Shown: one piece after another, positions 4,559-44,029 of the stretch
Layout of the letters: the number at the start of each line of letters is the position of its first letter
Numbering within the stretch: the first letter of the stretch is position 1
Source: Poseidonia sp.
GTDB lineage: Archaea; Thermoplasmatota; Poseidoniia; Poseidoniales; Poseidoniaceae
Reading direction: 5' to 3'
Assembly: GCA_016778305.1 (NCBI GenBank)
Contig: JADHPT010000001.1
Location: forward strand, 136,457-200,456
Length of the DNA stretch: 64,000 nucleotides
The notes under the pieces: generated by a model
The model's input: only the letters and a program-made list of their open reading frames with translations
Database searches by the model: none
Told to the model about the DNA's origin: nothing
Translations under genes and position numbers: made by a program

Positions 4559-4584
4559 CTGAAGCATCGCCGTCATATGGGATA

Positions 4585-4880
4585 GGTGGGGAGCTCGGCG
4601 TACCCTGTACCTCAAATCGTCGTTATGGTGGACTGAACGCCTTGGGGCGGCGAAAGCGGCCATTAGGTTCCCGTAGGCGGACGTTGATGTCTCGCCCCCA
4701 CATGACTCGGGTGTCATGAACTGTATCCGGAAGGAGACAGGGAGTGAATAACCGGGGGACTAGGTCAGGCCGGGAACGGAGCAGCCCTACCTGGGGCCAT
4801 GGGTGCTGTGGGGTGTCGGGATGGAGGATGCTTGCGGATTTGGCTTGATGGTACGAGCGTCCACCCTTGGCTCTCCCACC
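4585..4880 (+). ncRNA. signal recognition particle RNA (7S / SRP RNA)
   Basis: 296-nt stretch with no credible ORF. Contains the helix-8 signature GGUCAGGCCGGGAACGGAGCAGCC (GGAA tetraloop closed by C-G, AGCAGCC SRP54-binding loop). 5' GGUGGGGAGC pairs with 3' GCUC(U)CCCACC to form the terminal helix. Length matches archaeal 7S RNA. Confidence 0.7.
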
Positions 4881-5374
4881 TAAATGTCAAAAACAACATC
4901 TGCGAACCATCCAGGGCCATCAAACGAAGGTACATCCTGCCACTGGCTAGCTATTGTTTCCCCCTTTCTAACTTCAGCAACACGAAGTTCGTGGGTCGTA
5001 ACGGCCTTAATCTCAATTTCCCTTTTGACGGTATTGCCGTTAATCCATTGAACATGCGCTACCAATACGAGACCATGTTCAGTTTCCTCAACACGGACCA
5101 ATGAATCGACCAACCATTCTTGGTGTACTTCATTTCGGTACAATACTTCCTCAATCCATGCGATGAAGAGAAATGACCGATCAAAAGGAGCATGTTGGCT
5201 TGTCACCCGCCACTCTCCACTGTGCCTCACCTCAGTTTTGATATCTTCATAACTTTCAGAACTCATCAAATAATTTTGAACTCCGTGGGCAGCTTCTACA
5301 AAGAGACCGTCAAAGCTTGACGCAAATACGCGAAGACCAACATCGGCGGTGGTGGGCCAAAGCCATGAACTCAC
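4880..5374 (-). CDS. archease
   Basis: 164 aa. N-terminal TTADVGLRVF (cf. HTADIGIR) and C-terminal ADVVFDI (cf. AEVIFDI) archease signatures. Confidence 0.8.
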   Translation of the reverse strand: MSSWLWPTTADVGLRVFASSFDGLFVEAAHGVQNYLMSSESYEDIKTEVRHSGEWRVTSQHAPFDRSFLFIAWIEEVLYRNEVHQEWLVDSLVRVEETEHGLVLVAHVQWINGNTVKREIEIKAVTTHELRVAEVRKGETIASQWQDVPSFDGPGWFADVVFDI

Positions 5375-39373: not shown

Positions 39374-39886
39374 TCAGTGGTGGTGACCACCTGGGCCATG
39401 TGCATGACCGTGGGAGAGTTCTTCTTCTGATGCAGCACGTAGCTCAACGACTTCAACAGAAAAGGTGAGCGATTTTCCGGAAAGTGCGTGGTTGAAATCA
39501 GCTGTAACCGTTTCATCGGTTAACTCGGTCACAGTGAATGGCGAAGGTCCGTGTGGCATTTGGGCGACGAGTTGCATGCCGACTTCCAAAGGAGATTGTT
39601 CTTCAAGTTGTGCAAAATTATCACGAGGAATCTGCAATACTGCTTCATCATCGCGTTCACCATATGCACGTTCAGCGGTAAGGGTAAACTCACGGCGTTC
39701 TCCAACCTTTGCACCCATCATCTCCTCTTCAAAACCAGGAATCATTTGCTTGTGACCAACCAAGAAAGTCAACGGATCTCGACCTTCACTTGAATCAAAT
39801 ACCTCTCCCGAGTCGGGCAATGTACCCGTATAGTGGACGCTTGCTACTGAATTTTCTGATATTGTATTGTCTGTCATTATGTTCAT
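39374..39886 (-). CDS. FKBP-type peptidyl-prolyl isomerase, SlyD-like with His-rich tail
   Basis: FKBP core VHYTGTLPDSGEVFDSS with an inserted flap. C-terminal HGHAHGPGGHHH. Confidence 0.85.
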   Translation of the reverse strand: MNIMTDNTISENSVASVHYTGTLPDSGEVFDSSEGRDPLTFLVGHKQMIPGFEEEMMGAKVGERREFTLTAERAYGERDDEAVLQIPRDNFAQLEEQSPLEVGMQLVAQMPHGPSPFTVTELTDETVTADFNHALSGKSLTFSVEVVELRAASEEELSHGHAHGPGGHHH

Positions 39887-40728
39887 CTCCTTGTTGTCAT
39901 TTTTTTGACGAGGACTCGAAGGGAATCTGCAACCTCTGAGGGCAGAACCAGTTCCGCTTCTTTTTGTTCAATAAATGTCAGGGATTCTTCGATGCTGACA
40001 CGTTCACCCTTCGCCCAGATTTGGCCGAGTACGTTTGATCGGTGTTCCTCTGGTACCTCGGGGTTGTCTAAAATATCCCGTGCTGCATATTTGTACTCCA
40101 GGTATTTTTGACGGTTCAGACGTTTTTCTTGCTTCTGTCGCCCGCCTCCTTTCTTATCGAAGCGTCGACGACCATGTCGCCTATTGTCTGGTTTGACAAC
40201 CACCGTTTCGATTTGTTTGAAGATATTCTTGACCTTGTTTGGCGCGTGAGTGGCGATGGTGACGGCATCGTCATCCATCTGTAAAGTCTCCAACTCAGTT
40301 TCGTCTGTTTCAATCGCTTCAACTGCTTGTTCTACAACTTCTACAGGTGTAATTCCAGTAGGCTGCGCTGAAGGTGCAGCTTTCTTGAGTGCTTCTGATT
40401 TTCTACGTAATTCGGCTAATCGGTCTTCACGACTTTGGTTAGCGGGCTTGGTCGGATTATCAGTTCGTGTTGGTTGCTTGGGCAGTGCAGCGGGTTGAAT
40501 TTCTGGTGCTACAACATCCCCTTTCTGGACAAGTTTCTCAATGGCTTCTCGCTGTTTTCGTTCAAGATCAGCCTTGATGTTCGGCTTTTCTTCTACTACT
40601 TCAGGGACAGGGGCAGGTCGTCGGGTGGTTTGACGTTCTCGTTCGTCACGACGTCGTCGTGCTTGCTGAGACGCATCTTTAGCGAAGGGATTGAATTCCT
40701 CTTTGCGGCCCCGACGTCTTTCGATTGG
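39883..40728 (-). CDS. K/R/E-rich protein of unknown function downstream of kae1; start codon undetermined
   Basis: Frame is open from stop 40729-40731 to stop 39883 (282 codons). No ATG/GTG/TTG occurs in the first ~145 codons (first TTG at 40293, first ATG at 40278). N-terminal half RRRGRKEEF...RRRRDERERQ. C-terminal half YLEYKYAARDILDNPEVPEEHRSNVLGQIWAKGERVSIEESL. Confidence 0.45.
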   Translation of the reverse strand, partial: PIERRRGRKEEFNPFAKDASQQARRRRDERERQTTRRPAPVPEVVEEKPNIKADLERKQREAIEKLVQKGDVVAPEIQPAALPKQPTRTDNPTKPANQSREDRLAELRRKSEALKKAAPSAQPTGITPVEVVEQAVEAIETDETELETLQMDDDAVTIATHAPNKVKNIFKQIETVVVKPDNRRHGRRRFDKKGGGRQKQEKRLNRQKYLEYKYAARDILDNPEVPEEHRSNVLGQIWAKGERVSIEESLTFIEQKEAELVLPSEVADSLRVLVKKMTTRR

Positions 40729-40787
40729 CTATTCCCCCAATTGACTGTGTCGGCCCACCCATTAAAACCGTATGGGATTGATTTGAC

Positions 40788-41795
40788 TCAAGACCATACA
40801 ATAGGTGTTTGGTCAGTTCGCAAATATTGGTCAATGGCACTTTCATCAAGTGCCGTGGTCCTCTTTTGTAATTCCAACCATCCCAAAAGTCCGATCATGG
40901 TTCCGTTGTCGATGCAGTACATCCGTGGAGGTGCATGTGAAGTCCCCTCACGATCGCTTGCCATGAGATTGCACATCTCTCGCATACGGTTGTTGCAGGC
41001 AACACCGCCTCCAAGCAATAACTCAGATTTGCCAGTATGAGCCATGGCTCGTTCTGCCACCTCGACACAAGATGCGAAGGCATGTTCTTGAAGTGACCAA
41101 CAAACTGCATTGAGTGGAGCACCGTTGTCAATGAGTCGTTGTGCCGCAGTAAGCAATCCTGAAAATGCGAGGTCCATGCCACGAACGGCATAAGGGAGTT
41201 GCAGACCTTCCATCGTTGGTGTGGGGTTTTCCGATAGATATTCTGCGGCCAATTGCTCAATCTTAGGTCCTCCTGGGAATGGTATGCCCTGGTTTCGAGC
41301 GAATTTATCCAACATATTTCCAATCCCGATATCAAGTGTCTCTCCAAGAACCCTGTATCTCCCGTTCAACCGCGCTATGACTTGTGTATTCCCACCCGAC
41401 ACATAGAGAAGGACTGGGTCATCACAACCGCATTGTTGTCGGCCGATTTCTATGTGTGCAACACAGTGATTAACGCCGATAAGCGGTACGTCCATTTTGG
41501 TAGCAAGACCCCGCGCAATCGCTGCACCCACACGCAGGCAAGGGCCCAAGCCTGGACCTTGCGAATACGCTACCGCTCCAATGTCGGACGGTGATATCGA
41601 ATGCATTTCCATGGCCTTTGTAAAGAGCATTGAGGCCACATCTTTGTGATGATCTGCGGCTTCCCGTGGATGGATACCACCTTTGTCAGGCCGTAGCGTA
41701 TCTGACGCTGCAGGATACGGTATGCCTTCACCATCTACGAGGCCAAAGGAAAGGGTATGCGCAGTTGTTTCGATACCGAGGGTCCAAGTTCCCAT
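40788..41795 (-). CDS. kae1: tRNA N6-adenosine threonylcarbamoyltransferase Kae1
   Basis: VNHCVAHIEIG (His-His metal site), GPGLGPCLRVG, LGGGVACN. Confidence 0.9.
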   Translation of the reverse strand: MGTWTLGIETTAHTLSFGLVDGEGIPYPAASDTLRPDKGGIHPREAADHHKDVASMLFTKAMEMHSISPSDIGAVAYSQGPGLGPCLRVGAAIARGLATKMDVPLIGVNHCVAHIEIGRQQCGCDDPVLLYVSGGNTQVIARLNGRYRVLGETLDIGIGNMLDKFARNQGIPFPGGPKIEQLAAEYLSENPTPTMEGLQLPYAVRGMDLAFSGLLTAAQRLIDNGAPLNAVCWSLQEHAFASCVEVAERAMAHTGKSELLLGGGVACNNRMREMCNLMASDREGTSHAPPRMYCIDNGTMIGLLGWLELQKRTTALDESAIDQYLRTDQTPIVWS

Positions 41796-43952: not shown

Positions 43953-44029
43953 GGGCTCGTGGTCTAGGGGTTTATGACGTTGCCTTGACATGGCAAAGAT
44001 CGAGAGTTCGATTCTCTCCGAGCCCACCA
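43953..44029 (+). tRNA. tRNA-Val (anticodon GAC), intronless, genomically encoded CCA
   Basis: Hand-folded cloverleaf. Acceptor GGGCUCG/CGAGCCC. D-arm with GG. Anticodon stem UUGCC/GGCAA with loop UUGACAU. T-arm GAGAG-UUCGAUU-CUCUC. Discriminator A then CCA. Confidence 0.9.

Follow-up and report, generated by a model that had tools for sequence, protein, structure and literature searches.

A kae1-linked gene family of marine Poseidoniaceae with AUC or AUU as its probable sole start codon

The bacterial genes infC, which codes for the initiation factor IF3, and pcnB start with AUU, and in infC this weak codon ties expression to the stringency of start-codon selection, giving autoregulation (PMC4705826). 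Among the archaea, the 30S-aIF2-Met-tRNAi complex of Sulfolobus solfataricus engages AUU in vitro on an mRNA bearing a Shine-Dalgarno (SD) sequence unless aIF1 is present (reviewed in PMC4705826), and ribosome profiling of Haloferax volcanii places about 30% of the putative alternative initiation sites at near-cognate codons (PMC7261190). In yeast, loss of N6-threonylcarbamoyladenosine (t6A), the product of Kae1 and Sua5, doubles the number of detected non-AUG initiation events (PMC4717488). Here we present a gene, termed X, from a stretch of 64,000 nucleotides of Poseidonia sp. (assembly GCA_016778305.1, contig JADHPT010000001.1, positions 136,457 to 200,456 of the forward strand; this whole stretch is henceforth the window, and all coordinates refer to it). 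X lies next to kae1 on the minus strand and lacks a canonical start codon at its conserved N-terminus; we posit that its translation probably initiates at an AUC codon that is replaced only by AUU, and in two divergent loci by AUG, across the family.

X resembles infC and pcnB in that its apparent sole start is a near-cognate codon, AUC or AUU (here written AUH, or ATH in DNA), with the mismatch at the third position. As in infC, the codon has been conserved even though one mutation would turn it into ATG, it is paired with an SD element, and it misleads annotators. X is likened to infC by its sequence layout: the absence of a canonical start, a conserved near-cognate codon and an SD at the proper spacing, with its pairing inferred, are all found at this locus. 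Unlike infC, X belongs to the archaea, which use aIF1, aIF1A and aIF2 and not IF3, and it is not a known initiation factor. The engagement of AUU by an SD-positioned archaeal complex, as described for Sulfolobus, is the biochemical basis that the mechanism proposed below for X would need; that case, however, concerns a model mRNA on which AUU is rejected once aIF1 is added, whereas X is a natural gene that apparently depends on such a codon. The Haloferax sites, in turn, are alternative or minor and were discounted because they might be false positives, in contrast to the start of X, which is conserved and would be the only one available to its family. The yeast genes GRS1 and ALA1 have conserved non-AUG starts, UUG and ACG respectively, and X shares with them the conservation of a near-cognate start, being in addition locked next to kae1. 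Eukaryotic non-AUG starts are, nevertheless, a matter of scanning and usually give N-terminal extensions beside an AUG-initiated isoform, unlike the SD-based layout seen at X.

The frame of X (40728..39883) is open for 281 codons after TAG 40731-40729, up to TGA 39885-39883, and the first ATG, GTG or TTG within it is TTG 40293, 145 codons in, followed by ATG 40278. Counted from the ATC in question, the nearest downstream canonical start is 144 codons away and the TAG lies two codons upstream. No other open reading frame (ORF) of the window approaches this start-less stretch, the runner-up having only 43 codons. A search of 5.8 billion proteins recovered 933 homologues (best E 3.5e-113) with 60-85% identity over 100% of the length, the N-terminal 145 codons included; nearly all of them are 282-294 aa long and belong to Poseidonia or to another member of the Poseidoniaceae (Marine Group IIa). 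All three of the closest relatives (76-83% identity) are annotated in N-terminally truncated form, at 215-237 aa, which suggests that they share the anomaly of the missing start. Within the clade of the window, codon positions 1, 2 and 3 account for 3, 1 and 23 of the variable columns over the first 45 codons from ATC, leaving the protein nearly invariant; by this pattern, the stretch that immediately follows the TAG is both translated and subject to purifying selection. Hence, the unmatched start-less length, the conservation of the N-terminus as protein and the purifying selection from ATC onward together indicate that the X frame is a real gene and not a chance open frame. The first-pass annotation of this DNA had described a start-less frame on the scale of 282 codons, with ATC as the second codon after the TAG at 40729-40731 and TTG 40293 and ATG 40278 as the first canonical starts, and had considered chance openness unlikely; these coordinates are borne out, as is that judgment.

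The bases around the TAG are not peculiar to one assembly. Six contigs from different samples, syntenic for kae1, X, the FKBP gene and a methylmalonyl-CoA mutase gene, read ATG GGG GAA TAG CCA ATC GAA, and NTG GGG GAA TAG CCA ATC is also read by two GTDB species-representative genomes (L007 and L008) and by four further Joint Genome Institute (JGI) metagenome contigs, one of which is a Sanger scaffold of the Global Ocean Sampling (GOS). The 14 nt preceding ATC are invariant throughout this clade. At the NTG that opens this motif, which is an apparent upstream start, the window is the sole member of the clade with TTG (40738-40740), the ten related contigs all having ATG; this difference fits an upstream triplet that lies outside start-codon selection. 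The TAG is thus an in-frame stop placed three codons past an apparent start, and a GTG at 40758-40756 precedes it in the same frame as well; the first-pass annotation names neither TTG 40740-40738 nor this GTG.

The strongest indications for the position of the start come from the family as a whole. With each GTDB species represented by one genome, a scan gave 80 Poseidoniaceae loci, and 83 loci (77 distinct sequences, the window included) were anchored on the conserved N-terminal motif and their upstream DNA was compared. Common to them are, in this order, a TATA-like GgTTTTAa at -44..-37, a spacer whose length is fixed and whose sequence varies, T at -14, GGGGG at -13..-9, 8 nt, and then ATH. 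Of the ATH codons, 59 are ATC, 22 are ATT and two are ATG; none is ATA or a codon for another residue, although ATA makes up 14% of the Ile codons in the window. The G-run is present in 80 of the 83 loci, such that the would-be Gly codon within it is GGG in all of these, despite being the rarest Gly codon of the window (13%). The fixation of GGG against its low usage and the absence of ATA against its frequency therefore imply that both constraints act at the nucleotide level. Other genes of the window likewise carry GGAGG or GAGGTGAT at a distance of 7-9 nt from the start codon. Measured as per-site information, conservation lacks coding periodicity upstream of ATH and has a clear three-base periodicity from ATH onward. 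L079 and L082, which are the most divergent of the loci (about 40% identity) and have a weaker G-run, carry ATG at the Ile position, and the in-frame stops 4-5 codons upstream mean that this ATG is the start there; among long homologues at a greater distance, the N-terminus reads M-KKRKK.. or M-QRRRRRK.., with the Met right at the basic stretch.

The sequence between the G-run and ATH behaves as a spacer. The triplet homologous to the TAG of the window is TTA in 29 loci, TCA in 19, TAG in 12, TAA in two and TGA in two, with other triplets in the rest; its outer bases, T(-6) and A(-4), are conserved, while the middle one varies freely. All three stop codons are found at this triplet, with stops in no fewer than five separate lineages (the window clade; L010, L012 and L033; L021; L074; L083 and L085), each of which has sister loci with a sense codon. 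The codon between this triplet and ATH is variable and never start-like. In the 16 loci with a stop at the triplet, no canonical start stands after this in-frame stop and ahead of the conserved N-terminus. The upstream triplet, whose last base is the first G of the run, has a canonical form in most loci (42 with TTG, 17 with ATG and five with GTG); the other 19 have CTG (6), ACG (4), GCG (2), TAG (2), and CAG, TCG, NCG, ATT and TGA once each, and these loci likewise offer no canonical start. As for the canonical starts farther downstream, even close relatives do not share them. By this comparison, ATH is the only codon able to act as a start in every lineage, and the TTG of the window is probably non-functional as one. 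Its invariance, the ATG of the outgroup, the onset of coding constraint exactly at ATH and the SD-like G-run 8 nt ahead of it lead us to consider it likely that translation of X initiates at AUC 40725-40723 and that TAG 40731-40729 lies in the 5' leader. The alignment of orthologous loci thus points to the shared start position and to the conservation of the N-terminal 145 codons as protein, in support of initiation at the non-canonical ATC, which the first-pass annotation had listed among its options. No conserved RNA structure sequestering the G-run was found (consensus energy -1.6 kcal/mol, with the Pro codon of NPF freely variable), and a search of the window for GGRGG-N6-9-ATY followed by long ORFs returned, apart from X, only sites internal to ordinary genes.

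Table 1. Features of the kae1-X-FKBP locus (window coordinates).
Feature	Position	Strand	Basis or remark
kae1, archaeal t6A synthase catalytic subunit	40788-41795	-	TIGR03722 E 2.1e-129, PF00814; directly upstream of X
TATA-like box GGTTTTAA	40762..40769	-	in 62-nt kae1-X spacer; -44..-37 relative to ATH
TTG, apparent upstream start ('pos-5' codon)	40738..40740	-	its last base opens the GGGGG run
GGGGG, Shine-Dalgarno-like	40734..40738	-	ends 8 nt upstream of ATC; in 80/83 loci
TAG in SD-start spacer	40729..40731	-	proposed to be undecoded; homologous triplet variable
ATC, proposed initiation codon	40723..40725	-	ATC/ATT/ATG only across 83 loci
CDS of protein X	39883..40725	-	280 aa + TGA stop; homologues, codon-position bias
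FKBP/SlyD-type peptidyl-prolyl isomerase gene	39374..39886	-	PF00254 E 3.4e-19; directly downstream of X; syntenic in relatives

The kae1 gene ends with TGA 40790-40788, and the end of the spacer that follows it reads, on the minus strand, ...GGTTTTAATGGGTGGGCCGACACAGTCAA TTG GGG GAA TAG CCA ATC GAA AGA CGT... The TATA-like box is found at its fixed spacing in about 74-76 of the 77 distinct loci and is centered at -40.5. Standard archaeal promoter geometry would then put the start of transcription near -14/-13, at the T|G step within TGGGGG (about 40738), and the TAG would fall inside a leader of about 13 nt. We propose that the promoter would give a transcript whose 5' end lies at or near the invariant GGGGG, and that the G-run would pair with CCUCC at the 3' end of 16S rRNA, with one G-U wobble. 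Such pairing would position the small subunit in such a way that the codon lying 8 nt downstream occupies the P site, and there the initiator Met-tRNA, if it is indeed the tRNA used, would read AUC with a third-position mismatch and yield a protein beginning Met-Glu-Arg-Arg-Arg-Gly. The TAG and the TTG 40740-40738 would then be within or ahead of the leader and remain undecoded, and gene callers limited to ATG, GTG and TTG would either truncate X or extend it to a fortuitous upstream NTG. The TATA-like box may also, or instead, be an oligo-T terminator for kae1. A GGT at 40757-40759 on the minus strand (-34..-32 in the family, 3-5 nt past the box) is conserved in almost all of the 77 distinct loci and might be a promoter or regulator-binding element.

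Several points weigh against this proposal. In the systems examined to date, initiation at AUC or AUU is very weak, and it is unusual for an SD to lie at the very 5' end of a transcript. Discrimination by aIF1 against AUU has been seen in vitro (PMC4705826). If the T-run is instead the terminator of kae1, X could be translated from a kae1 read-through transcript. Finally, the upstream triplet is ATG, TTG or GTG in 64 of the 83 loci, well in excess of the 3/16 that NNG would give, and the purines at -5 that would create a stop are depleted (14/77). Use of the upstream NTG in many lineages might account for both of these patterns; so, equally, might an initiator T-G preference and the composition of the spacer.

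The rival that draws most on the latter two patterns has translation starting at the upstream NTG (TTG 40740-40738, ATG in the closest relatives), and, in lineages that carry an in-frame stop, a near-cognate tRNA, a suppressor tRNA or pyrrolysine insertion taking the ribosome through it, to give M-G-E-X-P-I-E-R... It is further favored by the C that directly follows the TAG of the window, C after a stop being a leaky context in eukaryotic and archaeal-type termination. Nevertheless, the occurrence of TAG, TAA and TGA at the site across lineages speaks against a TAG-specific recoding, and TAG is an ordinary stop in the window, where it terminates 9 of the 55 ORFs; on these same grounds we rejected a genome-wide reassignment of TAG, or its decoding as pyrrolysine. 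Moreover, more than one of the 19 loci without a canonical start at the upstream triplet have a stop there; GGG is fixed at the nucleotide level in a manner unlike a Gly codon, coding periodicity is absent upstream of ATH, and the invariance of ATH as well as the ATG of the two most divergent loci would be left unexplained. The hallmarks of stop-codon recoding, namely a specific stop, a conserved upstream start and constraint on both sides, are thus wanting at this locus, and we regard this rival as unlikely. A slightly less probable variant would have the mini-ORF M-G-E-stop translated and the ribosome reinitiating 3 nt on at AUC, with a long form made from the NTG wherever the stop is absent. 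The strict conservation of ATG GGG GAA TAG CCA ATC in the clade of the window and the gap of only 3 nt from stop to AUC are in its favor. Against this, it requires two different mechanisms in one family, fails in loci that have no upstream NTG, and leaves that NTG without an SD of its own, since the G-run overlaps it; the predicted transcription start is also at or after the NTG. As AUH would still be a functional start, this is in any case a variant of AUH initiation and not a replacement for it.

The remaining rivals dispense with AUC as the start altogether, and we give them little weight. That only a short C-terminal protein of about 131-136 aa is made from TTG 40293 or ATG 40278, with the 145 codons upstream untranslated, would agree with the stand-alone C-terminal domain of about 100 aa known in other archaea, such as the Theionarchaea; yet the N-terminal 145 codons are conserved as protein, the near-invariant EEFNPFAKDASQQ carries synonymous changes, and the positions of the internal starts vary even among close relatives, making this very improbable. 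Even less can be said for a +1 ribosomal frameshift into the long frame from the short ORF at ATG 40762-40760 (MGGPTQSIGG...), which the first-pass annotation had offered as an option. This ATG, its position correctly given as was that of the kae1 stop at 40788, lies out of frame and exists with its ORF in the window and in close relatives; it is, however, absent from most of the family, being the TAA|TGG junction of the TATA-like box, which elsewhere is mostly TAACAG, TAACGG, TAACTG or TAAGGA. The family loci show no conserved slippery or shift site and no conserved peptide in that frame, and the shift would have to occur in a stretch whose main frame already shows codon-level constraint. The locus therefore differs from prfB-type programmed +1 frameshifting both in its start, which is unconserved beyond the close clade, and in the lack of a conserved shift site. 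Least credible of all is an error of assembly or sequencing, whether an indel in the G5/C5 homopolymer or a miscalled base making the TAG, or else a recent pseudogene. The homopolymer does adjoin the stop, and an indel near it had been suggested earlier with the run placed at 40733-40737 (correctly 40734-40738). We reject an artefact of this kind, given that the same bases are read in ten independent contigs of differing projects, samples and technologies, Sanger GOS sequence among them, and that the run is invariant in 80 of the 83 loci; the anomaly also recurs in other genera with other stop codons, and the ORF is under strong purifying selection. A fusion with, or readthrough from, kae1 was likewise discarded: the frames differ and the distance from kae1 to ATH (56-71 nt) is variable and not a multiple of 3.

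Returning to initiation at AUH as the preferred reading, the protein that would result has 280 aa and is basic, K/R-rich and helical. Its basic N-terminus (ERRRGRKEEFNPFAKDASQQ) bears the near-invariant motif named above, its middle comprises predicted helices between disordered acidic segments together with an RGG-like basic patch (RRRGRRRFDKKGGGRQKQ), and its C-terminus forms a four-helix domain with a predicted local distance difference test (pLDDT) score of about 90 for residues 195-278 in an AlphaFold2 (AF2) model. A profile of this domain matches a synthetic pentatricopeptide repeat (PPR) protein with E 2.8e-5, a value summed over three weak repeat matches and corresponding to about one repeat-like hairpin; there is no Pfam PPR match for X. 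Our searches found no similarity of X to any KEOPS subunit (Bud32, Cgi121, Pcc1, Pcc2/Gon7) or to a known RNA-binding family. X is possibly an RNA- or ribosome-binding protein. The first-pass annotation had spoken of a basic, nucleic-acid-binding neighbor of KEOPS; the K/R-rich composition and the linkage to kae1 agree with this suggestion, which is plausible despite the lack of similarity just described. In Theionarchaea and other archaeal contigs (L087-L090), we also observed stand-alone proteins of about 100 aa that consist of a short basic tail and the C-terminal four-helix domain of X; these have ordinary ATG starts and variable gene neighborhoods.

The kae1 gene lies upstream of X on the same strand in all 82 related Poseidoniaceae loci, whereas it is not adjacent to the short homologues of X in other archaea. 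On the other side of X, the FKBP/SlyD-like gene has two candidate starts. The first, ATG 39886-39884, overlaps the stop of X (ATGA) and is directly abutted by an SD-like AAGGAG, with no spacer; the second, 9 nt downstream (about 39877-39875), has a normal SD spacing and agrees with the 167-aa calls in relatives, and is for these reasons probably the true start. An Rfam scan of the window detected an archaeal signal recognition particle (SRP) RNA at 4575-4881 (+), with 126.5 bits, and a tRNA gene at 43953-44026 (+), both away from the X locus, and nothing else.

Database entries for X are in disarray: many copies (P0001, P0004, P0007, P0259-P0370) are fragments of 72-207 aa or begin at arbitrary upstream TTG, ATG or GTG codons. 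These miscalls look like a systematic annotation error arising from the non-canonical start. A further irregularity concerns L027 (NZEQ01000052.1), labelled 'Verrucomicrobiales bacterium isolate ARS100', which carries a kae1-X locus of the Poseidoniaceae type; the contig was probably mis-binned in that metagenome-assembled genome. A search of the literature on AUC or AUU starts in archaea or Poseidoniales found no description of a conserved case.

The long retention of a weak start might, speculatively and by analogy with bacterial infC, imply low expression or a tuning to the stringency of start-codon selection as set by aIF1. A more elaborate proposal, to which we assign a low probability, is that the AUC/AUU start, retained beside kae1 throughout the history of the family Poseidoniaceae, acts as a translational sensor, the output of X being set by the level of aIF1, by the t6A37 status of the initiator tRNA, for which Kae1 itself is responsible, or by both, with X feeding back on translation or tRNA modification. 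If true, this would be an archaeal counterpart of the AUU circuit of infC, wired to the t6A pathway.

We present X as a natural archaeal gene with an apparently sole AUC/AUU start that is deeply conserved. Archaeal gene finders accept only ATG, GTG and TTG, and hundreds of X entries have consequently been truncated or wrongly extended; our observations correct the annotation of an abundant marine family and flag X as an abundant, possibly RNA-binding protein of archaea that are very common in the surface ocean. X also offers a natural substrate on which to study how archaeal initiation, with its SD interactions, aIF1 and aIF2, treats near-cognate codons. Moreover, regulation through a weak start of the kind known from infC may exist in Archaea, and here it would stand beside the gene for t6A, a modification that influences the fidelity of start-codon selection in eukaryotes.

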